A stretch of 64,000 bases of DNA from Styela clava (GCF_964204865.1 NC_135256.1:2356001-2420000), one strand, 5' to 3'. Shown: positions 1 through 53,000, counted from the stretch's first letter. Notes: a model not told the origin generated them from the letters alone. Numbers and translations: made by a program.

Positions 1-425
1 GTAAATGATTTCGTATTGCCTTTCTATTTGATCGAGAGAAGAACGATCGCCACATAGATTATTGTTTTCTGCAACATCACGAACCATCCGTTCTACCAAG
101 GTCGTTTTACCACTTCCTGCCTGGCCAACGATAGCTATGTGCCGATATTTATTTGAGTTGAGGCTTTGCAATATTTGTTTCAAATCCACCAATTTTCCTT
201 CATTGCCAAACTCTTTTGAAACACTGAATCCAACTTCCTTTTGATATTCTTTTTTCTTCGGTGCCATTTCACCACTGAAGAAATGAGATAGTTTTCGAAC
301 GCGAGGATTTGCTTCGAACTCTGGTTCGACCAGCCGTTGATCTTTGTACAAGTCGGTAACAGAACCCTTTGCTTTGCGGTATGCATCACGATTAACATCT
401 TTCTTGAATTTTGCTACGTATTTTT
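1..425 (-). CDS. 5' part of NACHT exon of paralog A
   Basis: Acceptor ttgcag| at 426-430. Open frame EKYVAKFKKDVNRDAYRK...RHIAIVGQAGSGKTTLVERMVRD...YEIIY with Walker A. About 16 differences in 142 aa versus the exon at 50698. Confidence 0.92.
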
Positions 426-3400
426 CTGCAATTTTTCAAAAATTAATTTTTACTATTGCATCCTATTCCGAAAAACATGAGATATGACAGGGATGGTCAA
501 CCTGTTTTCAATCGCAATCGACTAAAATCTACAAAATAGTTCGTGTCATGCTGTAAAATAAATGAGTACGGAATATGCAGATAACTGCACACACACAGAC
601 GAAAAATTCCACCGCTGCCAATAAATTCGGCTCTGTGGGAGAATTTTTAATTCAATCGCCACACAATTTGTATCTTTCATGCTTTGTAACTTTAATTTTG
701 TAATTGTACCCGGAGTATTTTATCATCATTTATTTATGATTTATTCGATTCATACAATTCGGCCCGCAATATAATCCGGCCCACGACTTCACTGGATTAT
801 ATTAACAAAACAACTGTTTTGACGATCATAACTTTACGTAACATATTTTATTGTGATACACGTGTAGACTGAATTATATTATAACCTAACAAGTATATAA
901 TTTACAATCACTCGTTTAATGAGCCTATAAATTGATTATAATTAGACAAATGACAACAGAACGTAAAAAAGTTGATGCTGAGTGCAAATGGTTTAATGGC
1001 GCAGAAAATATTCAAATGATCAGTCTTAGCGCGCTGCTTGAAATTTAATTGAAATCAGTGTGAAAAAATGTGATTCATTGGCCATTCCCTCAGTTTTTAA
1101 CTTTCTAAAAATATTTGCGGCCCGCCAATAACTTGCAACCTTCAATTTTGGCCGCGAACGACAAAAGTTTGCCGAAAGTTGATTTAGAAAGAGCATTACT
1201 GGCACACATACCCGTGGGTCTATATCCACTAGATGTTGCAAGAGACTAGTCATCTTCTGACTTTGGGTTAGAACCACGTGTTCTCAGTTGCGTTCTTCGC
1301 ATACTGTCGCGTTAGGCTGATTGCCCTCTTAGCAGTTCTTAGTTGGTTCTAGCTCTACCAACATGGACTTATATTTGTAATTGATTCGTGTTCAGGTATA
1401 ACGATTATTAGCTTTCGTACAGTTCAAAAGTTTATTGGTACTGCATTTGTTTGTACCCATGTGACACTAAAATTAATTACCGGATTTTCCGACTGTTACA
1501 CGTTGTTCAAGTTATAATACATTTGATTGATCTAGTCAAGTAGACTGTTGTTTATGGGGATTTGGAGAAAACAGGCTGTAATATTCGCTACTGAAGGTGC
1601 CGCCTCGTCCCATCATAATAAGAAAAAGACCGCGTCGAAACGTTTATTTTTAGTATCAACATTTGAGGCACACTGTAAGTCCAAGTCAACACTGTTTTAG
1701 AGTTCGCAGCGTGACCAACACTACATGCTATTTTCCTATTCAGCCGAAGACAATTCGCAACGCAGCTTCATCACTGATATTTAAAACATATAACAATTCA
1801 AAGTGAAACACATTAAAGGCATGATAATAAGACTTGATTTAAAAAGGTTTTCTTAAAAGGAAAAAGAAAATTTTAGTGTCTGCTGCTGAGTGTTCATGTC
1901 CATATGTTTTTTAGCGTCTCAGCTGTCGCTCACCTATCTACGCTTCTCAAAAATGTCTGGAGCTTGGTACTTTAAATAGGTATTTTTCTTAGAACTCTTT
2001 TCTCGGTTTTGTACAGAAAATGAGCTTGAACGATATTAATCTAACAGATTGTTAAATTCTTCACCATTGCACACCTTCAAATGCTTAAATGCACGACTAA
2101 CCCATTTAAACGACCTGTTCGGCTGTGAGTTGCCCATTTGTCGTACCGGCCAGAGCCTTGAGAATTCTCGAACAAGATAAAAAAAAATCTCAAGTTTTGA
2201 CCAATAAATTTCTACCAATATGTATTTCACTGCACATCGTGCTAAGCGTTAGTAATACGCTCACCACTGTACCTCTGAATACCCTGCGTGGGTTCCCAGG
2301 TTTGAATCTTATGTGCGAGATAATTTGCTCGATGCCGCCATAAGGTGGTTCTCGTAACCGCTGGTGGGTTACGGCTATCAAGTTCATGCTTTCAGGTACA
2401 AATAACTGACTAACTATTCTTATATCCGACATGGACTGATAACTGGATGAGAAGCCATGGTTCGCCATATGATGAAGCCATCAAATCGGCTTTCTTCTCC
2501 CCGGAATAAATATGTAAACCCTATCCTAGAAAAGCAGCATTTCGCCTAAAAATGATAAGATTTGGTTGGAATGTAGCATGACTTCAGCAGGCAGATCCTA
2601 CAAAACTAAAATATGTTGATGCATCTGCTTTCTGTTGGCAGAAAATCTTAGATAAAGTAGAGTTTAACTAATAACAACAGCGAATAATAATTAAATACCG
2701 AAATGAACAATGCTCACCCTTCTTCTTTTTCTTCTTCTTTGTTGGTGAGACGCCCACTAGTGCCGGGATATTTCCTAAAGTCATCGGTTGCATGTTTGCT
2801 CCCGTTCCCACTGTGAAAGCAATGAGATTTGAGTTTTTGACTGAAGGTTTGACTGAAGTTAACGTTCAAGTTCATTCATTCATTCCTTCATATTTTCTCC
2901 CAAAATTTAGCGAAAATTTCGTAGAATATTTCATTATCTTGTTTGACATTTCTAAATTAATGAAACAGCGTCGGCACGCTTTATGTAGAATTAAGAGTTG
3001 AAACGACGGGTAAATCTGTCTCCTAAAATTTTGTTGGTTTTGCATGCTTGTAAAAGCCGTGGGCAAATCTCCCGGAATTCAAGGGATCATGTAGTGGAGC
3101 GCGAGACCCGTTTCTAAGCAAAACGGTGTAGGTCCTGGAGTCCGGCCGTAACGGATATTTGAAAAGTAAAATAACATTTTACAATTTTGAGAGAATACCA
3201 AAGTCAAAAGGTTATTGTGACGTAACAATGTATCAACACGGCGCCGTATTTCTTGGTTGACGATCCAATTTCGCCCTACCCAAAATTATAGAAAGTATCC
3301 GCTGTTGTCAATTAGACGTTATTGTTCGCATATATCAAATGACTTGATTTAGAATTTTGTGTTGTGGTGATGAATTTTTGAAAATCAAGTCTATTCACTT

Positions 3401-6400
3401 AAGTAACACCAGTTCCAACAGCAAACTATTCATATAATCTGACATACCGTAAGTGGCAGGCATCACATACACTGTTCTAATCTGAATATTCGTTGCTTTC
3501 ATTTCCCCAACAGTAGCATCAGTTATATTGGTTTCTAAAAAATAAGTTCAATTTTCAAAGTTTCTGCTTTGAATCTCACAAATAATATGATAGGTATGTG
3601 TTTACATTGTGTATCCATTTCATACACGATGGCCTGCGTATTGTCAAGGGTTAAATTATATATTTGGCAAATGAGAATATATGACCAGATAACTGAACAT
3701 GATAACCTATGACCAGGCAACTGCGAACAACATGTGGGATATGTGCGCTGTGAGTTAGACTCGAAATAGAGAAACTAGTTCCAATGATCTGGATTATATA
3801 TTTGGTTGCACACATTAATTGATAAAGCAAGTTTATCAAGTGAGTCACCTAGAGGTTATTATGTTATATTGAAAATGAAAATGCATACGTAACATCTTGG
3901 TACGTTATAGCTTGTTTATATAAATACGCTAAGCAATTAAAAATTTTTTTTTTGCTGAATCTACATGTATCTTTATATAGGTACCAATGAATATTATTAG
4001 TTTGACCCTTATTTGGAAAAATATTTTTAATTTTTAATCATACCAGTTATGTTGGTTTGTTGCAAAGTCTCTGCCGAGATATGAGCTTCGGTTGCGGAGA
4101 GAGTTGCCTCTACTGTTTGGACAGTTGCCCTTTGCGACGCTATTTCTGTATGTTCAGAGATCACCGAAACATCTTTCGCAGTTTCTATTCTCATATCTTG
4201 AACAGCAGCCCCGGTAATGCTGGTTTCTGGAAATGAAAGTACAGGTTTCTTTAATAAAAGTTACAAAATCAATTTTTGCAATCCAACATTTTTCGATTTT
4301 TTCATGGTTTTGTTATTTTGTGTATGTCTACTGCGTATCCAAGCATGCTGGGGAAATAAACTACTGATCACTAACTAAGGCTCGATAGAAACATTCATGC
4401 TAACCAAACCATGAATCCAAATCCACAGCCCCAATCGTTGCTATAATTTATGGCTAAAACATTTTATATTTAATACCCAAGAAATACGACGAATAAAAAT
4501 AAAAATTTATTTTTCGACTAGGGTGAGTGAAAATTTAAATAAATACTCTAAATGAGGGGGTGTGCACAGTAGATTAGGGTGAATAAAAATTTAACTAAAT
4601 AGTTAAAGAGAGGGGATGTTCACAGTATGTTAGGGTGAGTAAAAACTTGACTAAATACCTAAAGTGAGGGGTTGTTCACAGTAGGTTTGGGTGAGTAAAA
4701 ATTTAACTAAATACTGAAAGTGAGGGGGTGTACACAGTAGGTTGGGATGAGTGAAAATTTAAATAAATACTCAAAATGAAGGGGTGTACACAGTAGGTTT
4801 GGGTGAATAAAAATTTCTCTAAATAGTTAAAGTGAAGGGGTGTACACAGTAGGTTAGGGTGAGAAAAAATTTAACTAAATACTTAAAGTGAGGGGGTGTA
4901 CACAGTAGGTTAGGGTGAGTGAAAATTTAAAAAAAAACTAAAAATGAGGGGGTGTACACAGTATGTTAGGGTGAGTAAAAACTTGACTAAATACTTGAAG
5001 TGAGGGGATGTTCAGAGTAGGTTCGGGTGAGTAAAAATTTACCTAAATACTGAAAGTGAGGGGGTGTACACAGTAGATTAGGGTGAGTGAAAATTTAAAT
5101 GAATACTCAAAATTAGGGGGTGTACACAGAAGGTTAGGGGGAATAAAAATTTATCTAAATAGGTAAAGTGAGGGGGTGTTCACAGTAGGTTAGGGTGAGT
5201 ATAAATTTGGCTAAATACTGAAAGTGAGGGGGGTACACAGTAAGTTAAGGTGAGTAAAAATTTACATAAATATTGAAAGTGAGGGGGTGTTCACAGTAGG
5301 TTAGGGTGAGTATAAATTGCACTCTAAATACTTAAAGTGAGGGGATGTTCACAGTAGGTTAGGGTGAATAAAAATTTAACTAAATACTTAAAGTGAGGGG
5401 GTGTTCACAGTAGGTTAGGAGAGTGCAAACTTAACTAAATACATCAAGTGAGGGGGTGTTCACAGTAGGTTAAGGTGAGTAAAAACTTGACTAAATACTT
5501 AAAGTGAGGGGGTGTTCACAGTAGGTTAGGGTGAGTAAAAACTTGACTAAATACTTAAGTTGAGAGGATGTTCACAGTAGGTTAGGGTGGGTAAAAATTC
5601 AACTCTAAATACTAAACGTGAGAGGGTGTTCACAGTAGGTTAGGGTGAGTAAAACTTGACTGAATACTTAAAGTGAGGGGAAGTTCACAGTAGGTTAGGG
5701 TGAGTAAAAATTTAACTCTAAATACTAAAAGTGAGGGGGTGTTCACAGTAGGTTCGGGTGAGTAAAAATTTACCTGAATACTGAAAGTGAGGGGGTGTAC
5801 ACAGTAGATTAGGGTGAGTGAAAATTTAAATGAATACTCAAAATTAGGGGGTGTACACAGTAGGTTAGGGTGAACAAAAATTTATCTAAATAGGTAAAGT
5901 GAGGGGGTGTTCACAGTAGGTTAGGGTGAGTATAAATTTGGCTAAATACTGAAAGTGAGGGGGTGTTCACAGTAGGTTAAGGTGATTAAAAACTTGAATA
6001 AATACTTAAAGTGAGGGGATGTTCACAGTAGGTTAGGGAGAGTAAAAATTTAACTAAATATTGAAAGTGAGGGGGTTTTCACAGTAGGTTAAGGTGAGTA
6101 AAAACTTAACTGAATACTCAAAGTGAGGGAATGTTCACAGTAGGTTAGGGTGAGTAAAAATTTAACTAAATATTAAAAGTGAGGGGGTGTTCACAGTAGG
6201 TTAGGGTGAGTAAAAACTTGAATAAATACTTAAAGTGAGGGGAAGTTCACAGTAGGTTAGGGTGAGTAAAAATTTACCTAAATATTGAAAGTGAGGGGGT
6301 GTTCACAGTAGGTTAGGGTGAGTATAAATTTAACTCTAAATACTTAAAGTGAGGGGATAATCACAGTAGGTTAGGGTGAATAAAAATTTAACTAAATACT

Positions 6401-9400
6401 GAAAGTGAGGGGGTGTTCACAGTAGGTTAGGGTGAGTGCAAACTTAACTAAATACATCAAGTGAGGGGGTGTTCACAGTAGGTTAAGGTGAGTAAAAACT
6501 TGACTAAATACTTAAAGTGAGGGGGTGTTCACAGTAGGTTAGGGTGAGTAAAAACTTGACTAAATACTTAAATTGAGAGATGTTCACAGTAGGTTAGGGT
6601 GGGTAAAAATTCAACTCTAAATACTAAACGTGAGAGGGTGTTCACAGTAGGTTAGGGTGAGTAAAAACTTGACTAAATACTTAAAATGAGGGGGTGTTCA
6701 CAGTAGGTTAGGGTGAGTATAAATTTAACTGAATACTGAAAGTGAGGGGAAGTTCACAGTAGGTTAGGGTGGGTAAAAATTCAACTCTAAATACTAAACG
6801 TGAGAGGGTGTTCACAGTAGGTTAGGGTGAGTATAAATTTAACTAAATACTGAAAGTGAGGGGAAGTTCACAGTAGGTTAGGGTGAGTAAAAATTTAACT
6901 CTAAATACTAAAAGTGAGGGGGTGTTCACAGTAGGTTAGGGTGGGTAAAAACTTGACTAAATACTTAAAGTGAGGGGGTGTACACAGTAGGTTAGGGTGA
7001 GTGAAAATTCAAATGAATACTCAAAATGAGGGGGTGTACACATTAGGTTAGGGTGAATAAAAAATTAACTAAATAGTTTAAGTGAGGGGAAGTTCACAGT
7101 AGGTTAGGGTGAGTAAAAATTAAACTCTAAATACTAAAAGTGAGGGGGTGTTCACAGTAGATTAGGAAGAGTATAAACTTAACTAAATACTTAAAGTGAG
7201 GGGGTGTTGACACTAGGTTAGGGTGAGTATAAATTTAACTAAATATTAAAAGTTAGGGGGTGTTCACACTAGGTTAGGGTGAGTATAAATTTAACTAAAT
7301 ACTGAAAGTGAGGGGGTGTTCACACTAGGTTAGGGTGAGTAAAAATTTAACTAAATACTGAAAGTGAGGGGGTGTTCACACTAGGTTAGGGGGAGTATAA
7401 ACTTAACTAAACATTGAAATATGGAAGCACAATAACTTAGATCAGTCTTTCCCAACCAAGGAGGAGTTTTTTTGACAGAATAGAAAACAGGAATGTGACA
7501 TTGTATTTAGATAATTTTAGATTCGAATATTTCCATAAATAGGGAACAAATAATATTTAAGAGAAAGAAAATATCAAAAAAGTGGCGAGTTAATGGTTTA
7601 GAACCATATTCTGTAAAATATGTAGAAAACTTTTAAACAATCATACCATTTATGTTGGTTTGTTGCAAAGTCTCTGCAGAGATATGAGCTACTGCGGCAG
7701 AAAGAGTTGCCTCTACTGTTTGAACAGTTGCCATTTGCGACGCTACTTCTGTATGTTCAGAAATCACCGAAACATCATTCGCACTTTCTATGCTCATATC
7801 TTGAACAGCAATCCCGGTAATGCTGGTTTCTGGAAATGAAAGAACAGTTTTTTTTTGATAAAGTTACAAAATCAATTTTTGCAATCCTACATTTTTCGAT
7901 TTTTTTATGGTTTTATTACTTTATGTATGTTTACTGCGTATCCAAGCATGCTGGGGAAATAAACTACTGATTACTAACTAAGGCTCGGTAGGAACGTTCA
8001 TTCCAACCAAACCATGACTCCGAATCTACAGCCCTGATTGTTGCTATAATTTATGGCTAAAACATTTTATATTTAATACCCAAGATATACAACGAATAAA
8101 TATAAAAATTTATTTTTCGACTAATCAATAATTAGACTAGAATATCGGTCAGAGACCAAAGACTTATCGATCGAAACTGCGGTTTCGATTCATGACTCTA
8201 CAGTGACACCGCGTGTCCCATCACTAATTAATTAATAACTCGCTAATTATATGACATAATTCATCCAAAATCAATAGGCTTCTGGTCCGAGATATGGTGA
8301 AAGCACATGCAACATTGGGAACAGATTCAACTTCGCTTTCGTGAGATACCGCGTGCATCTAACAGACAGACAGACAAATACCTATCAACAAACTTACCGA
8401 TCTTAGGATCGATCACAGTTGGTTAAGGTGGGTAATAATTTAACTAAATACTGAAAGTGAGGGAGTGTTCACTGTAGGTTAAGGTGAGTAATGATTTACC
8501 TAAATACTGAAAGTGAGGGGGTGTTCACAGTAGGTTAGGATGAGTATAAATTTACCAAAATACTCAAAGTGAGGGGGTGTTCACACTAGGTTAGAGTGAG
8601 TAAAAATTTAACTAACTATTGAAATATGAAAGCACGATGAATTAGATTAGTCTTTTCCAACCAAGGAGGAGTTTTTTGACATAGAGGAAAACAGGTATGT
8701 TACTTTGTATTTAGATAATTTTAGATTTAAATGTTTTCATAAATAGGGACCAAATAATATTCAAATGAAGGAATATATCAAAAAGGTGGCAAATTACTGG
8801 TCTAGGACCCTTTTTTGTTGAAGATGTAGAAAACTTTTAAACAATCATACCAGTTATGTTGGTTTGTTGCAAATTCTCTGCAGAGATATGAGCTTCTGTT
8901 GCTGAAAGAGCCGCCTCTACTGTTTGGACAGTTGCCATTTGCGACGCTATTTCTGTCTGTTCAGAGATCACCGAAACATCTTTCGCACTTTCTATGCTCA
9001 TATATTGAACAGCAGCCCCGGTAATGCTGGTTTCTGGAAATGAAAAAACAGATTTCTTTGATGAAAGTTACAAAATCAGATTTTGCAATCCGACCTTACT
9101 CAATTTTTTTATGGTTATATTACTTTGTGTATGTCTACTGCATATCCAAGCTTAAACTACTGATTACTAACTGAGGCTCGGTAGGAACGTTCATTCCAGC
9201 TAAACCTTGACTCCGAAAATGTATCGAATGTTAGAAACAGAATTTCCATGAATAGGGATGTTGTAATAGACAAGAAAAGGAATATATTAAAAAAGATGGC
9301 GAATCACTGGTTTAGAACTTTATTCCGCACAATATATAGAAAACATTAAACAATCATACCGTTTATTTTGGTTTGTTGCAAAGTCTCTGCAGATATATGA

Positions 9401-12400
9401 GCTTCCGCTGCAGAGAGAGTTGCCTCTACTGTTTGGACAGTTGCCTTTTGCGAGGCTATTTCTGTATGTTCAGAGATCACCGAAACATCTTTTGCACTTT
9501 CTATGCTCATATCTTGTATGACAGCCCCGGTAATGCTGGTTTCTGAAAATTAAAGAACAGATTTCATTAATAAATGTAACAAAATCACTTTTTGCAATTC
9601 AACGTGTTTCCATTTTTTTATGGTTCTATTACTTTGTGTATTTCTACTGCGTATCCAAGCATGCTGGGGAAATAAACTACTGATTACTAACTAAGGTTTG
9701 GTAGGAACGTTCATTCCAACCAAACCATAACTCAGAATCTAGAGCCCTGATTGTTACTATAATTTATGGCTAGTACATTGTACAAATACTAGAAATAATT
9801 TAATGAGTACTCTAGAAATTCAAGGAATAAAAATATATTTTTTGATTGATCAATAATTAGACAAGAAATCTTCTACGGGATACGATTAATTTGGGTAATT
9901 TTCCTGAAATAAAAGAAGTTCTGAGTCACTAAATAAAACTAGTTTAAACATTTGAGCATGATAGATTAGACCAACGTCTTTTTCCAGATAAAAAAAACAT
10001 AAATTTAGTGCAATTTTACTAGCATTTTTTAATTTCCAAGAATATTACAATGCATACATATTCATTCATAATTTTTCAACTATTCAAACCATGCAAAATC
10101 CAAAGTGCAAGTTGCATTAGCTGAATATCTGTTGAAATTTGAATGACGGAAACAAGAATTTTCATGAATAGGGAGGGACTACTAAAGAAATTTAAAGGAT
10201 AAAAATGAAAAAAATATATAAAAAAAAGTGGCGAAGCACTGGTTCATAACCATATTCTGTAAAATATGTAGAAAACTTTCAAACGATCATACCAGTTATG
10301 TTGGTTTGTTGCAAAGTCTCTGCAGAGATATGAGCTTCTGCGGCAGAAAGAGTTGCCTCTACTGTTTGGACAGTTGCCTTTTGCGACGCTATTTCTGTAT
10401 TTTCAGAAATCACCGAAACATCTTTCGCACTTTCTATGCTCATATCTTGAACAGCAGCCCCGGTAATGCTGGTTTCTGAAAATGAAAGAACAGTTTTTTT
10501 TTGATAAAGTTACAAAATCAATTCTTGCAATCCAACATTTTTCGATTTTTTTATGGTTTTATTACTATATGTATGTTTACTGCGTATCCAAGCATGCTGG
10601 GGAAATAAACTACTGATTACTAACTAAGGCTCGGTAGGAACGTTCATTCCAACCAAACCATGACTCCGAATCTACAGCCCTGATTGTTGCTATAATTTAT
10701 GGCTAAAACATTTTATATTTAATACCCAAGAAATACAACGAATAAATATAAAAATTTATTTTTCGACTAATCAATAATTAGACTAGAATATCGGTCAGAG
10801 ATCAAAGACATATCGATCAAAACTGCGGTTTCGATTCATCACTCTACAGTGACACCGCGTGTCCCATCACTAATTAATTAATAACTCGCTAATTATATGA
10901 CATATTTCATCCAAAATCAATAGGCTTCTGGTCCGAGATATTATGAAAGCACATGCAACATTGGGAGCAGATTCAACTTCGCTTTCGTGAGATACCGCGT
11001 GCATCTAACAGACAGACAGACAAATACCTATCAACAAACTTACCGATCTTAGGATCGATCACAGTTGGTTAAGGTGAGTAATAATTTAACTAAATACTGA
11101 AAGTGAGGGAGTGTTCACTGTAGGTTAAGGTGAGTAATGATTTACCTAAATACTGAAAGTGAGGGGGTGTTCACAGTAGGTTAGGGTGAGTATAAATTTA
11201 CCAAAATACTCAAAGTGAGGGGGTGTTCCCACTAGGTTAGAGTGAGTAAAAATTTAACTAACTATTGAAATATGAAAGCACGATGAATTAGATTAGTCTT
11301 TTCCAACCAAGGAGGAGTTTTTTGACATAGAGGAAAACAGGTATGTTACTTTGTATTTAGATAATTTTAGATTTAAATGTTTTCATAAATAGGGAACAAA
11401 TAATATTCATAAGAAGGAATATATCAAAAAAGTGGCAAATTACAGGTCTAGGACCCTTTTTTGTTGAAGATGTAGAAAACTTTTAAACAATCATACCAGT
11501 TATGTTGGTTTGTTGCAAATTCTCTGCAGAGATATGAGCTTCTGTTGCTGAAAGAGCCGCATCTACTGTTTGGACAGTTGCCATTTGCGACGCTATTTCT
11601 GTCTGTTCAGAGATCACCGAAACATCTTTCGCACTTTCTATGCTCATATATTGAACAGCAGCCCCGGTAATGCTGGTTTCTGGAAATGAAAAAACAGATT
11701 TCTTTGATGAAAGTTACAAAATCAGATTTTGCAATCCGACCTTACTCAATTTTTTTATGGTTATATTACTTTGTGTATGTCTACTGCATATCCAAGCTTA
11801 AACTACTGATTACTAACTGAGACTCGGTAGGAACGTTCATTCCAGCTAAACCTTGACTCCGAAAATGTATCGAATGTTAGAAACAGAATTTCCATGAATA
11901 GGGATGTTGTAATAGACAAGAAAAGGAATATATTAAAAAAGATGGCGAATCACTGGTTTAGAACTTTATTCCGCACAATATATAGAAAACATTAAACAAT
12001 CATACCGTTTATTTTGGTTTGTTGCAAAGTCTCTGCAGATATATGAGCTTCCGCTGCAGAGAGAGTTGCCTCTACTGTTTGGACAGTTGCCTTTTGCGAG
12101 GCTATTTCTGTATGTTCAGAGATCACCGAAACATCTTTTGCACTTTCTATGCTCATATCTTGTATGACAGCCCCGGTAATGCTGGTTTCTGAAAATTAAA
12201 GAACAGATTTCATTAATAAATGTAACAAAATCACTTTTTGCAATTCAACGTGTTTCCATTTTTTTATGGTTCTATTACTTCGTGTATTTCTACTGCGTAT
12301 CCAAGCATGCTGGGGAAATAAACTACTGATTACTAACTAAGGTTCGGTAGGAACGTTCATTCCAACCAAACCATAACTCAGAATCTAGAGCCCTGATTGT

Positions 12401-39656: not shown

Positions 39657-41049
39657 GTTTTTTATTGTTGATATAGAAACGAAACTTCATTCCGTACTTC
39701 CTATAAAACGCACATTACTAGGGTAACACATGCATGGAATTTCATCTAGATTGGTCCAGCCGTTAAGACGCTAAGACTCAGCCATACAGACAAACAGAAC
39801 GACCGATAATAAAGGTCCCCTATAGCGGAGATCCAAATATACCAGTATTTGGCAGACGATATGATTGCTAGAGATATGTTTCCGCATATTCTATACATGA
39901 AAATGTCCAAATGCATTGCTAAAGTGCGCACACGAAAAACAATTAAATTTTAGTTTTATTTTTGGATTGTTTTTTATATACTCGATTTTCGTTATGTCAT
40001 GACACTTAAAGAGTCATTGTGACTGCATATATGTCAAAACGATCTATAACCAATCTAAAAGGCCTGGTTGAATTTGGTATATGTTGTCACAATATTATCA
40101 CAAGCACTTGACTACTGCAATGTTCCAAACGAACCGAAATGAATTTTGGGGTTTTAAAACAGATTTTGCAGATTTATTTTCAGTTATTGAATTCTCGCCA
40201 TTTTTCATCGGTTTAAGCTTCAACTAATGAAAGCCATATATAATGTACTTTGGGATATGTTGATCGATTATTTTACTATAATGTTGAGAAATTCGATAGT
40301 GAAAGCGGAAATATTTGACATTTCATATCTATAATACAACTAAACAGTGGAACTCTTATAAATAAAGCTTTTTGTCGAGGAAAACCAAGGCAGATTTTAC
40401 GAATTTATAACGACACGAATACCTAGGATATTTGATAAAACTTAAGATTACAAAAATCCAACACTGGCCAAATTTTACTTTGTCATTCTCAGTTTAAACC
40501 ATAAACATAAGAGTCAACCTGAAGTGAATCATATAAAACACTTGAAGTGTTGAAGTTTCATTTCATCGCAATTGATGGTGAGTTTACTACATTATGAACT
40601 TGTTTAGTCAATGGGCATTACTTTTGTAAAATATTCCTGAAAATTTTAGAATAGGAAGTTCAATATTTATCCCGAAGAGAACAAAGTCGATAACACAGAT
40701 TAATTTTGGTACGTGGTGCCATATAATTAATCTTTATTATCACTATCTTCTCCCTGTGAAAATATTGAAATCCTATTTTATGCTTGAATCGTCATATCAT
40801 CTTTTCTTTCTACAGACAAATATAGAAAGCTGGATAGAATATAGAAATCCATATAAAACCATATCATATTCTTGTCCTGACCGGTTTTGCGTTGATTTCC
40901 ATTTTCTAGAAAAAGTTTCTTTCCAATGCCCTGATTACCAGTTTTTGGCTATAGTCTATTAATATCCCCAGCGAATTATTCTACATATTTCTTTTTCTTT
41001 TGTATAATCTATCTAGCAACACCGAATCTGATGTTTTATAGATTTGAAA

Positions 41050-44000
41050 ATGGAGCAGGAGATCGGGCCAGCTATGTCGGTGTCAGGGACACACATAACC
41101 GATTCCGTTCTGCAAGACTTGAGCGTGAACAACGCTGAAGAAGTCTCCGTGACAGCAGAACGTTCAGAAATCGCATATGTAGACGAAGCATCTGTGATAG
41201 CAGAACAAGCGAATGTACCAGCTAGAGATGTCGTCATTACTGCGGAACAATGCCACATCGGTAAGATAATTATTTTTGGAATATTGTTTAAACCCAGTGT
41301 TTCTGGCAACGCCGAATTGCCGTTGTTTCTCTTGACATCTAGAAGTGCGGTCAGGGCACTCAAGTTTGAAATATGAAAGACAAAAAAAATTTCACTCGAT
41401 GATATTTCAATTTGGTTCATTTTCGCCCATTGGAAATCGCTGATTTAAAGAGAAATAGCAGGCAAAACTGTATTTGAAATTTTCCCAAATTTCGCAAATT
41501 CTGATTGAAATGATGAAATCAGAATTATGTAAAATTACAAAGTACTAATGATGTAGGTTTTAGTTTACACCGAACAATGTATAGCTGATAAGCAAGCAAA
41601 CTGATAAGTATATGCAATATTAAATCAGTAGGCAATGGCATCAGATGTTGATTAATTTAAAAAAAAATAAGTTTACGGTTTTTAGGGCACAGGAAAGTGC
41701 TTCTAATTATTACTTAATCCAATTTATTTGGTATATGTGACTGTTATATGGTATTATATTACAGCGAGCAACGAGACAAGTGTGAAAGCTCAAGAAGTTT
41801 CCGTTTCCACTGAGCAAGCAAACACTAGAGCAGGGGAGGCAATTATCACTGCAACTGTACTTCAACAAACCAACATTGATGGTAAAATATTTTTATACCT
41901 CTTGTCAAACTTACTTTCAATGTGGCCAACAAGTCACATTCTTGTGTGAAGATTTTAAAATTTGAGTTCTGGCGATGTTTGTTGGAAGAAATGTTATGTT
42001 ATAGAAGAGTTATATGCATTAAATTGACTTTCTTTTATTTCAAACTCATGACGCATTCACTCACCCTCGGTGACTGCCAAGTATATTTCTACCGCTTATT
42101 TGCATCAATAATATTGCATTCGTTGGAGCCAATCTATGCTACTGTTGATTCACAAATTAGATTCGAAATGGGCTCTGCAACTAATCAGGAATACCTTAGT
42201 GTTGCTTTAGTTAATTTTATGGCTGTCAAATACGATCACTATTATAATTGAAAAGGTCATTTATTTCATTTCCAGAAACCAGCATTTCCGGGGCTGCTGT
42301 TCAAGATATGAGCATAGAAAGTGCGAAAGATGTTTCGGTGATCTCTGAACATACAGAAATAGCGTCGCAAAAGGCAACTGTCCAAACAGTGGAGGCAAAT
42401 GTTTCGGCAGCAGAAGCTCATATCTCTGCAGACACTTTGCAACAAACCAACATAACTGGTATGATTGTTTGTAAGTTTTCGACTTATTTTACAGAAAAAA
42501 GTTCTAAACCAGTGATTTGCCACCTTTTTGATACATTTCCTCTTGCCTATTACTTCTTCCATTTCCATGAAAACTCCACATTCAATAAATTTTTAACAGA
42601 TATTCATCTAATGCAACGTTGGATTTTACACGGTTCGAATAGTTGAAAAATTGTGTATAAATATATTTTGCAATAATACTAGAAAACTAATTGATATTAG
42701 TAAAATTGCAGCAATTTTTTATTTTTATCTGAAACAAAACTCCTCTTTGTGAAAAAAGTCCGCCTTGGTTAAGAAACACTGATCTAATCTATCGTGCTTT
42801 TATATTTTAAGAAGTTTTTATGATCAGATCAGAACTTCTCCTTTTTAGTAAAACTAACTAGAACAGGGTGGTCCCCTGGTGGTCAAGGTTGCGAGGTTGA
42901 AGGCCCGCAAAAACTTTTGAGGAGGTCTCGCGGGCCGCAGTCGGAGAAAGCCCAAAAGTGATCAAAACATCGCGAGTTTACTCACTTTAAATATATTTAA
43001 AAATGAGAGTTTATCGTTTTAATCAGTTTTTCAAGGAAACTATATGAAGTTATTTAGTTATTTTAAAATTGCTTCCCGAGAAATATTGTGGTATTTTCGG
43101 TATCTTTTTTCGCGTTTGATTTTGTAAAGTCGCTTAAATTTATATTCTTCCGGGACAGATATTACTTTGAAACACACCAGACACTGTGGTTTAACGTTGT
43201 CGTGTCTAAGAAAATGCGTCTCCTCTCAGTTTATCGCGATCACCTTTGTTCTACAATTTATATTTTTTCTACATTCATAGTATGACGAATAGTTATATTT
43301 AAAAAAAATTTATTACTTGTAGCGCGAGCAGTCCCAGTGCCACCGTCAAAAAACAACCGTCCGTATAAGTTGGGACCTCGGACCCAGATAATAAAAAAAA
43401 CAAGCTGGATCACACGGAGCTCTGTCAGCTCTGCGGTTCGTCAATGCCGTCACATGACCAACGCTTGAAAATAGAGGAGTGTTTTGGCAAAAATAAAGGC
43501 ACGAAATGCCTCTTCAAACGAGGAGTTACTTGACGCGAGCTCATCTCATTGGCTTAGTCTTGTCTACACAAGACAATTCATGCTCCGTTTACCTATCATA
43601 GGACGTCATTTCCATACAGGCACCGTCTTGACGTTTATATGTACAACAATGAAATTTCGTGATATTAACAAACAACAATCCCAACATCGGGATTAGGAAA
43701 AGGACTTTTCCCAGTGGGAATAGTTTGAAAATAAATCAAAATTGTTTTGCTAATAAATACAAATATCTGCCAATTGTTTAGTAGTGTACGCTGAAATTGT
43801 TCTGCGGGCCACATGCGGCCCGCGGGCCGCAGTTTGGACCATCCTGAACTAGAGTAATCCGATCCCATAGAAGCTTTCTGATCGTTTATTAGTAGGTAAG
43901 TTTAAATTCAATAGAAATACAGAAAATAAATGGCATTAGCCATTAGTTAATAGCAAAGATCAGGGCTTTGGTTGTGGATTCGAGATCATGGTTCTAAGCC

Positions 44001-47000
44001 ATTTAAAGAAATCTATTCGTTTCATTTCCAGAAACCAGCATCGCCGGTGCTGCTGTTCAAGATATGAGCATAGAAAGTGCGAAAGATGTTTCGGTGATCT
44101 CTGAACACACAGAAATAGCGTCGCAAAAGGCAACTGTCCAAACAGTGGAGGCAACTCTCTCTGCAGCAGAAGCTCATATTTCTGCAGAGACTTTGCAACA
44201 AACCAACATAACTGGTATGATTGTTTAAAAGTTTTCTACATCTTCAACAAAAAAGGGTTCTAAACCAGTGATTTGCCAACTTTTTTGATCTATTCCTTCA
44301 CTTGTCTATTCCCTCTTCCTATTCATGGAAACTCCCACATTTGATAAATTTTTAACGAATATTTAGGTAATGCAGCTCGCACTTTGGATATCGCGAGGTT
44401 TGAATAGTTGGAATTTGATGAATAAATATGTATGTATTGCAATAACCATAGAAATGAAACAATATTGGTAAAATTGCACTAAATTTTGGTTTCTCCTATT
44501 TGCGAAGAAACTCCTCGTTTAGGAAACACTGGTCCAAAATATTGTACACTCATGTTTAAACTAGATTTATTGAGTGACTCAGAACTTCTTCTATTTCTGA
44601 AAAATGAATCAAAGTGATCTTATCCCGTAGAAGTTTTCTATCTAATTATTGATTAGTTGGCAAATAAATTTTAATTCGTTGATTTACTTGGGTTTTAAAT
44701 ATGAAATGTACTATAAATAGATTATAGCAACAATGAGGGCTGTGGTTTCAGATTCATGGTTTGGTTGGAATGGACGTTTCTATCAAGCCTTAGTAATCAG
44801 TATTTTATTTCTCCAGCATGCTTGGCTACGCAGTGGGCACACACAAAGTAATAGCACCATGAAAAAAAATTGAAACACGTTGGATTGTAAAAAGTGATTT
44901 TGTAACTTTTATTAACTAAATCTGTTCTATTCATTCCAGAAACCAGCATTACCGGGGCTGCTGTTCAAGATATGAGCATAGAAAACGCGAAAGATGTTTC
45001 GATGATTTCGGAACATACAGAAATAGCGTCGCAAAAAACAACTGTCCAAACAGTAGAGGCAACTGTCTCTGCAGCAGAAGCTCATATTTCTGCAGCAGAA
45101 GCTCATATTTCTGCAAAGACTTTGCAACAAACCAACATAACTGGTATGATTGTTATAGCAATAAAACAATATTGGTGAAATTGCGCGAAATTTGGTTTCT
45201 CCTATTTGGAAAGAAACTCCTCGGTTAGGAAACACTGGTCTAAAATATTGTACACTCATGTTTAAACTAGTTTTCTCAAGTGACTCAGAACTTTATCTAT
45301 TTCTGGAAAATTACCCAAAGTAATCTTATCCCGTATGAGGTTTCTTGTCTAACAACAATTAGTCGCAAATAGATTTTTATTCCCTGAATTTTTTGAATTT
45401 TACATATAAAATGTACGAGTTATAAATTAGAGCAACAATCAAAGCTGTAGTTTCGGAGTCATGGTTTGGTTGAAATGAACGTTTCAACCGAACCTTATTC
45501 AGTAATTAGTAGTTTATTTCTCCAGCATGCTTGGACACGCATTATACATACCCAAAGTAATAGAACCATAAAAAAATTGAAAAAGGTCGGATTGCAAAAA
45601 CTGATTTTATAACTTTTATTAAAGCAATCTGTTTTTTTATTTTATTTCCAGAAACCAGCATTACCGGGGCTGCTGTTCAAGATATGAGCATAGAAAGTGC
45701 GAAAGATGTTTTGGTGATCTCTGAACATACAGAAATAACGTCGCAAAAGGCAACTGTCCAAACAGTGGAGGCAACTCTCTCTGCAGCAGAAGCTCATATT
45801 TCTGCAGAGACTTTGCAACAAACCAACATAACTGGTATGATTGTTTAAAAGTTTTCTACATCTTCAACAAAAAAGGGTTTTAAACCAGTGATTTGCCAAC
45901 TTTTTTGATCTATTCCTTCACTTGTCTATTCCCTCTTCCTATTCATGGAAACTCCCACATTTGATAAATTTTTAACGAATATTTAGGTAATGCAGCTCGC
46001 ACTTTGGATATCGCGAGGTTTGAATAGTTGGAATTTGATGAATAAATATGTATGTATTGCAATAACCATAGAAATGAAACAATATTGGTAAAATTGCACT
46101 AAATTTTGGTTTCTCCTATTTGCGAAGAAACTCCTCGTTTAGGAAACACTGGTCCAAAATATTGTACACTCATGTTTAAACTAGATTTATTGAGTGACTC
46201 AGAACTTCTTCTATTTCTGAAAAATGAATCAAAGTGATCTTATCCCGTAGAAGTTTTCTATCTAATTATTGATTAGTTGGCAAATAAATTTTAATTCGTT
46301 GATTTACTTGGGTTTTAAATATGAAATGTACTATAAATAGATTATAGCAACAATGAGGGCTGTGGTTTCAGATTCATGGTTTGGTTGGAATGGACGTTTC
46401 TATCAAGCCTTAGTAATCAGTATTTTATTTCTCCAGCATGCTTGGCTACGCAGTGGGCACACACAAAGTAATAGCACCATGAAAAAAAATTGAAACGCGT
46501 TGGATTGTAAAAAGTGATTTTGTAACTTTTATTAACTAAATCTGTTCTATTCATTCCAGAAACCAGCATTACCGGGGCTGCTGTTCAAGATATGAGCATA
46601 GAAAACGCGAAAGATGTTTCGGTGATTTCGGAACATACAGAAATAGCGCCGCAAAAAACAACTGTCCAAACAGTAGAGGCAACTGTCTCTGCAGCAGAAG
46701 CTCATATTTCTGCAGCAGAAGCTCATATTTCTGCAAAGACTTTGCAACAAACCAACATAACTGGTATGATTGTTATAGCAATAAAACAATATTGGTGAAA
46801 TTGCGCGAAATTTGGTTTCTCCTATTTGGAAAGAAACTCCTCGGTTAGGAAACACTGGTCTAAAATTTTGTACACTCATGTTTAAACTAGTTTTCTCAAG
46901 TGACTCAGAACTTTATCTATTTCTGGAAAATTAACCAAAGTAATCTTATCCCGTATGAGGTTTCTTGTCTAACAACAATTAGTCGCAAATAGATTTTTAT

Positions 47001-50000
47001 TCCCTGAATTTTTTGAATTTTACATATAAAATGTACGAGTTATAAATTAGAGCAACAATCAAAGCTGTAGTTTCGGAGTCATGGTTTGGTTGAAATGAAC
47101 GTTTCAACCGAACCTTATTCAGTAATTAGTAGTTTATTTCTCCAGCATGCTTGGACACGCATTATACATACCCAAAGTAATAGAACCATAAAAAAATTGA
47201 AAAAGGTCGGATTGCAAAAACTGATTTTATAACTTTTATTAAAGCAATCTGTTTTTTTATTTTATTTCCAGAAACCAGCATTACCGGGGCTGCTGTTCAA
47301 GATATGAGCATAGAAAGTGCGAAAGATGTTTTGGTGATCTCTGAACATACAGAAATAACGTCGCAAAAGGCAACTGTCCAAACAGTAGAGGCAAATCTGT
47401 CTGCAAACGAAGCTCACATCTCTGCAGAGACTTTGCAACAGACCAACATAACTGGTATGATTGTTTAAAAGCATTCCAAATATTTTGAACTTAAAGGTCG
47501 AACTGTCATTGATATATAACGATCCATGTAGATTCAGCGAAAATTTGTTTATGGTTGCTTAGCATATTTGCATGAACAAGCTATGGCGTGCTAATATGTT
47601 ACGTATGTAATTTCATTTTCAATTTAACATAGTATGTAATTCAGACCAAATCATTGGAACTATTTTCTCTACTTCGAGCCAAACTCACTGCAAACATATC
47701 CCACATGTTGTTCGCAGCTGTCAGGTCATGGCTTGTCTGACCATGACTGATGATATCACACTAAGGTGCTCAGTTATCTAGCGATATATTCTCAGTTGCC
47801 AAAAATATGATATAACACTTATCAATACGCAGACCCTCGTGTATGAAATGGATACACAGTGTGAAAACATACTTACTAAATTATTTGTAAGATTCAGCAA
47901 AAACATTGAAAATAAAACTGTTTTTTAGAAACCAAAATAACTGATGCTACTGTTGGGGAAATAAAAGCAACGAATATTCAGATTAAAACAGTGTATTTGA
48001 TGCCTGCCACTTACGGTATGTTAGAATATTTGAATTGTTTGCTTACTGTAAATAGACTTGTTTTTCAAAAAATCATCACCAAGTTATCAATATAACACCA
48101 AGCTATTTGATATTTCAAACCGTAACATGTAGTTGACAACAGCGGTGGACAATTTCCATGATTTTAGGAGCGACTTGGATCGTCAACCAAGAAATACATC
48201 GCTTTGCTCAAAAACGGTTCTTGAGTTCCACTGAATTGAGCCCTTGAACTCCGAGAGAATTTGATGACGGCTCTTACTAACATGAGGAAACAACAACTGT
48301 TAGGAGTCATGTTTTCTCGCCGTTTATTGGCGATCTATCACCATTAACGTGCATCAGGTTCCGTACATTTTGCAAACGTTTTTGGTCAAAACTCAAAGTT
48401 CATTGTTTACACAGTGGGAACGGGAGCAAACAAGCACCCGATGACGTATGAAAATATACCGGCACTTGTGGGCGTCTCACCAACGGCTAAGGGTGAGAGT
48501 TATTATTTCCTATTATTATTAGTTAAACTCTACCAACAGAAAGCAAATGCATTGACATATATTAGCCTTGTAGGATCTGCATGCTGAAGTCAGTCTACAT
48601 TCCAACCAAATCTTGTCAACTTGGAAGCAAAATGCTGCTTTTCAGGATAGGCTATGATTTACGTATTTATCCCAGAAAGGCGATAAGACGGCTCAATCAT
48701 ATGACAAACCACGGCCTCTCGTCCGGTCCCCATTTCATGTCAGCTATGGATTAGTTAGCCAGTTATTTGTTTTCCAAATCATGGACTTGATGGTGTAGGA
48801 AGCCGTATTCGACCAGCAGCAATCACTGAAATTCAATTTGCCTTCCTTAGACAACCTTTCTTAAATCAAGCCATGATAGTCTTATTATTATTAGGCCTCG
48901 AATATTTTTCATTTTGACAATGAATGTTACGTGTTTGAAATATCATTAATAAATCAGCTGCGCGGAGATCGTCTTCGACCGAATAGGAAAAGAGCAAATG
49001 CAGTGGTGCCAAATGCCAACTCTAAAACAGTGTCCATTCGGATTACAGTGTGCCACAGATGTTGATACTAAAACTAAACGTTTTTACCTATTATGCTTTG
49101 ACGGGATGGCACTATCAGGAATGAATATTACAGCCTGTGTTCTTCAAATCTCCATAAACAACAGTCTACTTGACTGTATACACTTAAATGCATTGTGACT
49201 TGAAAAATTTGTAACAGTCGCTCAAGGATTGCAAAATCAGGTCGAAAGCAACAACACTCGCCAAACAGTTGGTGTGGTACAAAAAAGCCGATAATTAATT
49301 TTAGTGTCACTCGGGTATGAACAAAGCAACAGATTTCTAAGCAGTGAAAGAACAAATAATTGCTATACCCAAACACAAATAAATTACAAATATAAGTCTC
49401 TGTTAGGCGAGCCAGAACTAACTGAGAACTGCTCAGCGGGCAATTAGCACAACGTGACAAAGTATAAAAAAACGCAAGTAGGAACACATGGTTCTAACCC
49501 AAAGTCAAACGGTCTCTTGCAACACTTAGTGGACATAAACCCACGGGTATATATGTCAGTAATGCACTTGTAATTCAACGGCCATTACAACAAACTACAG
49601 ACAAAATGCAAAAATAGTTTTATTTGTATTGAAACTGTATGCAATCGTACCATGCTTCCCTGTAATTTGAATTGGAAATAAAAAATATTGCTTTATTCCG
49701 AACGCTAATAATATTTTCATCTTGTTTGTATAGCTTCCGTTATTCATGTATTATACTTCAGCACACAGTAATCTGATACTAATACTAGTTTGTAGAACTC
49801 TTAATGACAGCATCTTCTGTTAGCGAATAACATTTCTATTATTTACAAGATTCGATATTAACGGTCGTCAGAGTGAAAAGCTTCATGCACAGACGCTGGA
49901 TATTGTCATGTTTATTCGAGAATTTCCTTCCAAAATATCAAATCCTAGGCGTTGAGAAATACTACATCAGTTGACATTTAAACTAACCATCCTATAGCTA

Positions 50001-53000
50001 ATTGCGGTCAACTCTGTCAGTCTGAATGAATAGACTTGGATCTCGTACGTCTATCGGGATTTGTTGCGCTTATAGAGCTGGAAAGCGATGTAGAAACGTC
50101 AATATGATTGATCAGAAATATTGAGAAACGGCTGCGCGTTTTTTTGTGGCTGAGAGTTTTGTAACGTACAGAATATCATGTATATTGACTTCTGCAGTAT
50201 GCGAAAGTTATGGTCGCCCGCAAAGTGTTTTTGCAATGGTCACATCAAGAATGCAATCTTTTCTAATTTCCAATTTTTTCCAAGCAAAAAACGAATCGGT
50301 CATGTAACAGTTATGGTTTGAGAATATTTATTATTTGTTGTTTAGATAACACATATATACTTGGCAAGGTTTTTTGAGGAAATATCAAATATATATAGTC
50401 AAATTAACAAATTAAATGGAACGTAAAAAATATAGGCTTATCAGCAACTGCGATTATTTTTGTATGGGTGTGTGTATTATCTGCATATTTAGTACACATT
50501 CATTTTTGTGTATGACCTTATTACCGATCAGTCAATCGCAATCTAATTTGAATACTTTAGTTTATCGCGGTCGAAAACAGGTTGGCCATCCCTGACTTTT
50601 TTTTTGTTTTCTGGAATAATGAAACAGACAGCTTAGGAAAAATATGAAACTTTAGTGCAGGATTAAATAGTGTAAACTAATTTTTAAAAAATTGCAGAAA
50701 AATATGTGGCAGCTTTTAAAAGAGATGTCAATCGTGATGCATACCGCAAAGCAAAGGGTTCTGTTACCGACTTGTACAGAGACCAAAGGCTGGTCGAACC
50801 AGAGTTTGAAGCAAATCCTCGCGTTCGAGAACTATCTCATTTCTTCAGTGGTGAGATGGCACCGAAGAAAAAAAAATACCAAAAGGAAGTTGGATTCAGT
50901 GTTTCAAAAGAGTTTGGCAGTGAAGGAAACTTGGTGGATTTGAAACAGATATTGCAAAGCTTCAACTCAAAAAAGAATCGTCACATAGCAATCGTTGGGC
51001 AAGCAGGAAGTGGTAAAACGACCTTTGTAGAACGGATGGTTCGTGATGTTGCAGAAAACAATAATCTATGTGATGATCGTTTTTCTCCCGACCAAACAGA
51101 AAGGCGCTACGAAATCATTTACTTTGTCTACATTCGAGATCTTCTTGATTCGGAGTCAATTAATGCGAAAGATTTACTTTTTGGAAACGTCATCACTGAT
51201 TCAAGTGAGGAAAGCATAAAATATGGATATGAATGGATCATTGAAAACCAGGAAAAGGTCGTATTTTTCTTTGATGGATTAGATCAGGCGACTTGGTCTC
51301 TTGGCGGACATCATCGCAAGATAAATCACAAGGATAAGGCCAGTACAGCAACGGTGATGTACAACGTTATCACTAGTCATCTTTTTCCCAGAGTTCAAAT
51401 TGTCATCTCCTCTCGCGAGCATTGCATAGCTTCTCTCACTGTGGACCTTCGACCCCAGCTTATCTACGCGTTAGTAGGTTTGAGCCCAGATGATGTCAAG
51501 AGATTATTCATTGCACTCCTTGGTAAAATCGGCCAACATCAATGGGATCGGATGTGTTCAACCTCTCCTGCAATTATCCCTCTGTCTTCAGTCCCAGTAT
51601 TTTTAATATACAACGCCATCGTTCAGAAGTTTAATCCGGAAAATCCACCTGATACCATGACAGGAGCTATGTTTGAGATCCTTGATATTCTTCTGCAATC
51701 TCAGCATGTCAGAGATAAGCAGGTTCTGCACAAGTTGAAAGAAATGGCTTTTCGAGCAATGAGCGAAGGACGAGTCGTCTTTACAAAAGATGAATTACTG
51801 AAGTTTGGATTAGATCCGGATTCGATTCAAGACCTGGTTATCAAAGTTCCAGGCCGCACAAGGGCGAGTCATTGCCTGCTTGAAGGAACCCAACAAATAT
51901 ATTTCTCACACCAAGTAATTGAAGAAAACCTTGCCGCCATGTTCGTGTCAGAAATTAGAGTTGAAGATTTCGAAGAATTCGTGAAAGGGTTCATTCATCA
52001 AGATCATTGGTCGATTGTTCGCAAATTCTTGTGTGGAATTCTTCTCAACCCAGATTTGGCAATTGATTGGGCTCCACAAATGCTTCAAAGTAAGATATCG
52101 CTGCATTTAACCTTTAGTAGTACAAAGCTGAATTTGGTTTCCTATAAAACTAACATCCCAAATTGAAGTAAGGAGGCTGTACGCAAGACGAAATTTTACA
52201 TAATATACCACAAATTCGTCAATACGCTTGTTTTAACATTTGTCATACTCACCCTCAAAAAAGTGGCGCAAACTTCGAAAGTTTAGTTTAGGTTTTTTTT
52301 TGTTTCTATTGGCCGCCTAGTTGTCGAAATAGAAAAGTCTTGCAACATAATTGTAATTGAATTACAAAATGCCGAACCTGAGAGATAAGGCTGTTTGAGT
52401 AGCATAAACGCCGATTTGCTTTATAAAGATCGTGTATTGCGTTAGGTCTAGTAGTTTCGCGAAATCCAGATTTGTACGATTAGAAGATGCATTTCAAACA
52501 TATTGGAACTATTAAATAATGGTATTTGAAATTCCCTATTTTTGTACAACGCCAAGAAGAAAAACTTCTGATTATTAATTTAACATATTTCTATTCGGTT
52601 TAAAGTATATTATTCCTTTGAATTATTGACAGTGCATTCGTAATCAACATTAATTTTTTTCAATAAATCTCAATTTAAAACTTATGGTTGTATTGTGTCA
52701 GCGAAGGAATGGCAGGTTATGCTCAATACTTGTTTTATAGTTAAAGATAAGAAGGCAAAAGAAGAAATATTGAGACGTAGCATGAATGAACAACTGAAGG
52801 AAGCAAACGATTCAACCGCTTTGATGGAATTGTTCGGAGCTTTGTACGAGTCGAATGACGCTGAATTGATTCGATCCCACGTTCATGATATTGATTTCAA
52901 GGAAGCAACAATCAACCCCAGTGGAATGCTGGCAATATCGTCAGTTATGCGTCGAAGTGGAAATCTAAATCTTCTGCGTTTTTCCTATTGCAATCTCACC

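Follow-up and report, generated by a model that had tools for sequence, protein, structure and literature searches.

NLR proteins sense a ligand with their leucine-rich repeats (LRRs) and oligomerize through their NACHT domain. The present work concerns two such genes of the ascidian Styela clava, located head-to-head on C8:2,356,001-2,420,000 (64,000 nucleotides, hereafter the window), and the long N-terminal part, here called the head, that precedes the NACHT domain in both of them. Ascidian NLRs have been described as being without an N-terminal domain (PMC11508797). In fungal NLRs an N-terminal beta-forming motif templates an effector encoded next door (PMC5485727, PMC4518210). The amphioxus protein BF82280 is a RHIM-NACHT-repeat protein for whose tandem motifs a short solenoid has been proposed, and tunicates appear to be without RHIMs (PMC4262963). 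Plant NLR pairs consist of a specialized sensor and a helper, often with an integrated domain; they are sometimes arranged head-to-head, and Pik shares a promoter (PMC10561179).

For the analysis 60 kb on the left and 20 kb on the right were added to the window. On balance we favor the reading that it holds two intact NACHT-LRR paralogues, likely brought head-to-head by a rearrangement that joined two lineages, with N-termini that are arrays of exons predicted to form a beta-solenoid. The exon-expandable head is the unusual feature of the locus, and its reading as a pair or palindrome is ordinary or wrong. A genome search with NACHT gave at least 90 matches (87 of 201 candidates scored). Ten close copies are located on one chromosome arm, at 0.6-2.4 Mb of C8, in the order A-, B-, C+, D+, E-, F+, G+, H+, left-, right+, and further copies of the family were found on C2 and C3 (one each).

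The two genes are transcribed divergently, as stated in an earlier interpretation of this DNA, the sequence-only reading. Their ATGs, 20337 (-) in the left gene and 41050 (+) in the right, are separated by 20.7 kb. Our exon models give 18 coding exons for the right gene and 25 for the left, with a single open frame of 1,446 and 1,869 amino acids, respectively, and with canonical AG/GT ends in both. Both frames being open, the case of one broken copy, which had been named beforehand as speaking against the pair, was not encountered. The NACHT domain of the right gene matches Pfam PF05729 with 71 bits against a cut-off of 26.7, and the Walker A and B motifs GQAGSGKTT and FFDGLD are present in both genes. 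C-terminal LRRs were recognized from the paralogue P0036, which matches ribonuclease inhibitor (E 3e-22) and has homologous exons in both genes. The number of 165-nt LRR exons varies, with three in the right gene, two in the left, three in E and F, and one in G; in these copies the first ten residues are far more variable than the remainder, as would be expected of a ligand-facing strand. In paralogue G (L012:8273-9865, L065) the first two LRR exons are duplicated as a pair.

The Styela pair thus shares intact Walker A/B motifs, weak winged-helix and HD2 matches and ribonuclease-inhibitor-type LRRs with the animal NACHT-LRR proteins of the NOD2/NLRC/NLRP type, and it likewise belongs to a clustered multi-copy family exchanging sequence among paralogues. 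It differs by having no CARD, PYD or death domain, but instead a repeat head of 544 or 1,023 residues. In P0036, P0035, P0027, P0028 and 27 repeat exons no Pfam match to a death-fold, TIR or BIR N-terminal domain was found, and this set did not contain a RHIM match either.

The residues before the NACHT exon (544 in the right gene and 1,023 in the left) are encoded by E1, E2, the repeat exons, E4 and E5, in that order. The repeat exon is a symmetric phase-1 exon of 7-residue pseudo-repeats and is present in frame in 6 copies in the right gene and 14 in the left. This tandem array was left out of the sequence-only reading. Among the paralogues the copy number is 10 plus one partial in A, 9 in B, 33 in C, 2 in D, 3 in E, 3 in G and 1 in each of H, C2, and C3, and none was found in F, for which 75 kb upstream were covered. 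The repeat exon has 87 matches in the genome, every one of them at these NLR loci. The 183-nt copies are all free of stop codons (42 of 42), and the ratio of the proportions of nonsynonymous and synonymous differences (pN/pS) is 0.34 over 39 distinct copies of this length; to judge from their sequences, the repeat-exon copies are under purifying selection. In paralogue C all 33 copies are intact, 207 nt each, across 114 kb (C8:997,604-1,111,625, L048 and neighbors), and the head of this paralogue would exceed 2,200 residues. The length variants of the repeat exon encode 53, 60, and 67 residues, in steps of exactly 7.

In a tree of the repeat exons, from which paralogue C and a partial copy of A were set aside, the copies did not cluster by gene. 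Copies 2-13 of the left gene (12 of 14) make up four recent copies of a 2.65-kb three-exon unit, and the right array contains a 1.6-kb duplication that is 98% identical. No relatives of the repeat exon were found outside Styela: a profile search with 27 repeat exons against 1.84 billion representatives gave eight matches, six of them from Styela clava, and the two weak ones (P0033 and P0034, unrelated repeat proteins) were dismissed as compositional. A second NLR clade, with NACHT 38-45% identical, has a related exon of 33 residues, which stands in long tandem arrays ahead of the NACHT exons of that clade (Table 1). At C1:24.460-24.480M 21 copies were counted, and in the stored protein P0021 they are in frame with NACHT. 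The hydrophobic peak of this exon lies at 142 degrees. By sequence comparison, the second-clade arrays lend support to a real role for the head. The linker exon E5 of the left gene ends in a run of seven lysines (2718-2745 (-)), which is also present in E and absent from the right gene; it may represent a difference in nuclear or membrane targeting.

Splicing was assessed in contigs from sequencing runs presumed to be RNA, in which repeat joints are not assignable to one gene. Joints at predicted splice sites were found for E4-E5-NACHT, NACHT-HD2, and LRR-LRR, and one contig (depth 2.6) splices E4 via E5 to the NACHT exon with zero mismatches to E4 and E5 of the right gene. Head-to-tail splicing of repeats, seen as a joint leading back 183 nt, was observed in three of four runs and then in four of four, corresponding to four of five distinct runs from three studies. 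The stored NCBI model of paralogue E (P0036) contains the full chain E1-E2-R3-E4-E5-NACHT-LRR, and repeats are likewise connected to NACHT in P0002, P0027, P0032, and P0035. One joint, which leads from E4 to the middle of a repeat exon (X8, 3533 to 4131, 10 letters between), was left uncounted as ambiguous, because the two exon starts are alike.

Three observations speak against these gene models. The joint from the repeats to E4 was not cleanly seen for either gene in the contigs. The NCBI model P0028 presents the right head as a separate 439-amino-acid protein that ends in an intron, which we took for an annotation split. Finally, expression of the left gene is not separable from that of the paralogues; the contig pieces listed for its NACHT exon have between 7 mismatches in 141 letters and 23 in 298 and could not be assigned to the left gene because this rate is close to the paralogue distance. 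It could be argued that the repeat exons are a separate gene, or a dominant short isoform, outside the NLR, since the models P0028, P0026, P0030, and P0031 contain the repeat part alone, copy H has 5' exons only, and a clean repeat-to-E4 joint is lacking. We find this very unlikely, as the phases are compatible and give one open frame in both genes, five stored models link repeats to NACHT, and one contig connects E4, a pseudo-repeat exon in its own right, via E5 with NACHT.

The head so joined to the NLR is probably a beta-solenoid, to judge from its hydrophobic periodicity and from one of two low-confidence AlphaFold models. Positions 19 to 51 follow a register with small or hydrophobic residues at places 1, 3, and 5 of seven and charges elsewhere. 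This fits the rule that solenoid interiors contain no uncompensated charge (PMC4262963). The hydrophobic moment peaks at 142-156 degrees in six of seven repeat segments, and only E1 peaks at 48-50 degrees (the 1/7 harmonic). For the right head the moment compared to shuffled sequences has a z of +5.0 at 154 degrees and -3.3 at 100 degrees. A strand-type pattern of two units was counted 24 times compared to 1.2 times in shuffles, and the a/d pattern of coiled coils 7 times compared to 3.6. The AlphaFold model of the paralogue fragment P0031 is all-beta over residues 10-133 and matches beta-solenoids (best Z 9.2; bactofilin Z 8.1, root-mean-square deviation 2.7 over 102). The pentapeptide-repeat Pfam model gave a weak match (E 8e-7, below cut-off). 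Bactofilin BacA and the pentapeptide-repeat proteins share with the head its predicted fold class, without evident sequence homology, and the structural scores are at a level common for repeats.

A number of points weigh against the solenoid. The strand-type pattern was defined after the sequences had been inspected, and a Z of about 8-9 is commonplace for repeats according to the tool's own note. The beta model of P0031 is of low confidence, with a mean predicted local distance difference test (pLDDT) score of 43.8 and 45-71 in the beta part, and it belongs to a paralogue and not to a gene of the window. None of its 84 Foldseek matches reached E<=0.001; CsgA and FapC, the top Foldseek rows at E 0.7-1, were not counted. 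For the right head of the window itself (P0028) AlphaFold gave a helical model (mean pLDDT 56, predicted template modeling score 0.28). In the PDB the head sequence is best matched by the tail needle gp26, a coiled coil from a phage (E 0.0014). The last two points bear on the alternative that the 7-residue repeat forms an alpha-helical coiled coil, such as a gp26-like trimer, or is mostly disordered, for which both the PDB profile match to gp26 and the helical P0028 model, with a local pLDDT of up to 90, can be cited. We regard it as unlikely, since the moment at 100-103 degrees falls below that of shuffles (z -3.1 to -3.3), the residue three places past each large hydrophobe is mostly E or Q, and the second AlphaFold model (P0031) is all-beta.

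General NLR biology would have each of the two genes act as a stand-alone receptor. A ligand sensed by the LRRs would lead to oligomerization of the NACHT domain, and this would cluster the predicted beta-solenoid heads. The clustered heads would stack on each other and on an effector, as CARD/PYD/death-domain filaments or fungal amyloid motifs do, and unequal crossing-over would alter the exon number and thereby rod length and avidity. By this analogy we tentatively propose that the head may be a self-stacking signaling rod of tunable length. More speculative is the wider proposal that a self-templating beta-solenoid replaced the death-fold in Styela NLRs, its length given by exon number (1 to 33); it would have been invented once and amplified separately in two clades, and crossing-over would tune the firing threshold and define which paralogues co-polymerize.

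Against a stacking rod, no effector sharing the repeat motif was found: genome matches of the repeat exon are confined to NLR loci, and the search with E4 scored 150 of 213 candidates. The head, with its 544 and 1,023 residues, is also no short single-copy motif and is far longer than known amyloid signaling motifs, and it is acidic, with a net charge of -47 in 425 amino acids. Between the left and right genes there is no coding match to the head. A candidate partner at C6:17.84 Mb was rejected; its three motif exons precede a NACHT-less HD2/LRR remnant with its own stop, and no link to the next RNase L-type frame was shown. That frame (C6:17,821,423-17,822,718; L082:1423-2718 (-)) has 432 amino acids and an RNase L/IRE1-type ribonuclease domain (PF06479, 41 bits against a cut-off of 23). 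It adjoins the NACHT-less NLR remnant downstream. C6 carries six close copies, of which two are located downstream of NACHT exons, at distances of 26 and 55 kb. The C6 ribonuclease frames are a possible NLR-linked effector family.

The head might instead act without templated stacking, either as a monomeric rod of the beta-helix type or as an acidic spacer; its surface would bind a ligand or partner, or it would set a distance, and its copy number would be tolerated and not tuned. The same periodicity and model evidence applies to such a rod, the negative charge and great length agree with it, no motif-bearing effector was found, and 1 to 33 copies with intact frames suggest a loose constraint on length. 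However, the head occupies the position of the NLR signaling domain with no other effector domain present, and the second NLR clade independently amplified a related exon at the same position. We consider such a non-stacking rod or spacer doubtful, and a self-stacking rod somewhat less so.

The fungal amyloid NLRs (NWD2/HET-S, HRAM, PP, sigma) resemble the Styela genes in having an N-terminal pseudo-repeat in the place of the effector domain, with a beta fold here being predicted. They have one short motif and an adjacent effector with the same motif, whereas the Styela head is hundreds of residues long, exon-modular, and acidic, and an adjacent effector with the same motif was not found. BF82280 and other invertebrate RHIM proteins have in common with the Styela genes that BF82280 is an animal NACHT protein with an N-terminal motif of beta type, again predicted in the case of Styela, but it carries two to three motifs compared to 1-33 exon units in Styela.

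Turning to the arrangement of the two genes, self-comparison of the window gave colinear reverse-complement blocks between 1-22,560 and 26,000-51,122, with identities of 66-94%. All eight anchor pairs of the sequence-only reading align in reverse-complement over 59-179 nt at 81-89% identity, with scores of 58-224 compared to a maximum of 24-31 in shuffles (200 per anchor). The anchors 425/50698, 2810/48415, and 20337/41050 coincide exactly with exon starts (NACHT exon, linker exon E5, and ATG, respectively). Outside the window the blocks continue until some 27.4 kb to the left of position 1, where the counterpart is 60,406, giving a total span of about 88 kb. Inverted matches cover 13,617 of 22,560 bases (60%) in the left arm; with the repeat-exon array excluded, the figure is 4,674 of 8,144. 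In the right arm it is 9,560 of 25,131 (38%), and in the inner right arm (26,000-41,000) just 2,351 of 15,000 bases (16%). The symmetry up to a central spacer that is expected of a fold-back palindrome is not seen, as the inner right arm is patchy and the center is a junction of two lineages. The inverted homology, described earlier as a diverged palindrome of more than 50 kb, is real and runs on outside the window, but given the patchy coverage "palindrome" is too strong a word.

The arms could have been two haplotypes mis-joined in the assembly, a case the sequence-only reading had itself raised. They differ by a synonymous divergence (dS) of 0.217 in the NACHT exons and in 11% of NACHT residues, and the same-species database protein P0004 is 97.6% identical to the right NACHT compared to 88.8% between left and right. 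Since the divergence of the arms is this large while P0004 is so close to the right gene, a mis-join was rejected as unlikely.

In each segment the left gene was compared with 10-11 other rows; H is absent from the trees where the NACHT, HD2 and LRR exons are concerned and F where E1 is, as they lack these exons. The outgroup C4out was left out of the approximately unbiased (AU) tests. In all five segments the left gene has its nearest relative in some other copy, usually D, and never in the right gene. In NACHT the left gene is 94.1% identical to D and 92.0% to the right gene, and for LRR exon L2 with flanks the values are 90.4 to the nearest copy and 75.4 to the right gene. The AU tests reject a clade of left and right in four of the five segments (p 0.003, 0.004, 0.010, and 1e-7) and leave it unrejected in the HD2 segment (p 0.22).

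The upstream regions give a clearer picture. On the left, 3,749 of 4,185 bases match D at 91.9% and 2,038 match the right side at 81.3%; on the right, 12,699 of 17,112 bases match H at 91.9% and 2,918 match the left side at 80.8%. The match to H starts at 24,889, the first base past the 43-bp satellite. On the far side of this base, several more kb of colinear DNA (74-88%) are common to H and G, a distant paralogue, but absent from the window, and D and B continue past their satellites into ordinary upstream blocks. Because H/G and D/B continue where the window sequence stops, both sides are truncated at one derived breakpoint. Judging from these sequence comparisons, the pair is likely the product of a rearrangement that brought two older lineages together at 24,888|24,889, each with its upstream region truncated, rather than of a fold-back.

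The sequence-only reading had instead suggested a single fold-back duplication, with copies that may be co-regulated or hetero-oligomerize. In its full form this model has the arms exchange sequence and the two proteins act as a co-regulated sensor/helper unit. It has on its side the colinear inverted homology of about 88 kb, the divergent orientation and both intact frames, the compatibility of the HD2 exon with a pair clade, and the NACHT exon, in which the left gene is the second-nearest relative of the right (92.0% compared to 92.3% for E); a head-to-head arrangement is also seen in some plant pairs (PMC10561179). The arms are, however, not each other's closest relatives in any of the five segments, and the center joins two lineages, so a fold-back origin was not upheld. 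Gene conversion from arm to arm did not find support either. In the NACHT exon, to which this comparison applies, one of 48 informative two-versus-three sites is exclusive to the pair, the longest identical run between left and right is 49 nt and the shortest among 10 pairs, and no homogenized tracts between the arms were found; the nearest relative does switch along the exon among other paralogues. Three of the nine neighboring pairs in the C8 cluster are head-to-head, which is near the quarter expected by chance, and there is no asymmetry between the proteins. Taken together we judge the fold-back model quite improbable, and recent fold-back and conversion largely refuted already. Similar trees would result from an old fold-back if each arm had then been copied out and the center later deleted. 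In this respect an old fold-back counts against our reading, but it needs more steps than a joining of two lineages. The palindrome itself is ordinary cluster turnover.

Head-to-head linkage of two NLR genes is shared with the plant pairs (Pik-1/Pik-2, RGA5/RGA4, RRS1/RPS4), from which the Styela genes differ in being 89% identical in NACHT, of a single architecture and 20.7 kb apart. The left and right proteins have the same exon chain, with the NACHT exon 88.8% identical, and differ only in the number of repeat and LRR exons. With the same architecture, the same intact Walker motifs and no integrated domain, and probably without a short shared promoter, each gene having its own homologous upstream block, they do not look like a sensor/helper unit of the plant type.

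Copy H has 5' exons only (E1, E2, and one repeat exon; L037:4164-5512). In copy F (L011) NACHT-LRR is present and no head exons were found in the 75 kb upstream. Both are of the right-gene lineage. B (L024-L026) and D (L030-L031) are mosaic, with near-identical 5' ends and NACHT exons from different clades, and the stored protein P0035 has C-type repeats joined to a D-like NACHT. The interval from copy H to the left gene's end contains a satellite of 15 kb with a period of about 67 bp (about 44.5-29.2 kb left of the window; L002-L004). A non-coding block of 0.55 kb (window 21925-22584 (-) and 26007-26546 (+)) is present upstream of most paralogues with two to six repeats and was matched nowhere else (40 of 3,017 candidates scored); it may be a regulatory unit that was duplicated. 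Direct duplications of about 0.9 kb, 97-99% identical, are present at 35369-36722 and 38228-39658 in front of the right gene; in H they are single. Rfam gave no matches in the window. The features are listed in Table 1.

Table 1. Features of the two NLR genes, their upstream regions and the related exon arrays (window positions unless a chromosome is given).
Feature	Position	Strand	Remark
Left NLR, HD2, LRR and terminal exons	reaching ~25.6 kb left of window	-	
Left NLR, NACHT exon start	1..425	-	runs 964 bases further left of window
Left NLR, linker exon E5	2718..2810	-	93 nt, lysine run at end
Left NLR, exon E4	3448..3534	-	87 nt, last short pseudo-repeat exon
Left NLR, 14 tandem repeat exons	4044..18398	-	183 nt, phase 1
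56-bp satellite, intron of left gene	4519..7411		51 copies; fragments within each 2.65-kb unit
Left NLR, exon E2	19106..19222	-	117 nt, pseudo-repeats
Left NLR, first coding exon E1	20127..20337	-	ATG at 20337, pseudo-repeats
Left-gene upstream DNA	20401..22684	-	~92% identical to paralogues D and B, ~81% to right side
43-bp satellite	22685..24888		51 copies, left (D/B) lineage, cut off at junction
Junction of two truncated upstream regions	24888..24889		derived breakpoint
Right-gene upstream DNA	24889..41049	+	same-strand colinear with copy H (C8:2,277,415 onward), ~92%
Right NLR, first coding exon E1	41050..41260	+	ATG at 41050; also in stored model P0028
Right NLR, exon E2	41765..41881	+	
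Right NLR, 6 tandem repeat exons	42276..47454	+	four of 183 nt, two of 204 nt
Right NLR, exon E4	47929..48015	+	
Right NLR, linker exon E5	48415..48492	+	
Right NLR, NACHT exon	50698..52089	+	Pfam PF05729, 71 bits; weak winged-helix match
Right NLR, HD2-like exon	52741..53051	+	
Right NLR, six LRR exons	53725..58831	+	53725-53877, 54484-54651, 165-nt copies at 55563, 56652, 57578, terminal 58643-58831 with stop
Second-clade arrays (L086-L092)	C1:24.46-24.48M, 31.36-31.38M, 31.56M, 31.65M, 31.72-31.77M; C5:107-178k, 232-289k; C13:4.00-4.01M		

A published description of this repeat head was not found in the titles and abstract openings searched, which leave most subscription journals uncovered. 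Ascidian NLRs have been described as being without an N-terminal domain (PMC11508797), and the tunicates, the sister group of vertebrates, as apparently without RHIMs (PMC4262963). The conserved, exon-modular and probably beta-solenoid head, split off by annotation, offers a concrete answer to how ascidian NLRs may signal. The natural series of 1 to 33 copies lends itself directly to testing whether the nucleation threshold of an NLR depends on repeat number. If unequal crossing-over did tune the firing threshold as in the wider proposal, a chordate would have a means of adjusting its innate immune sensitivity through the germ line.

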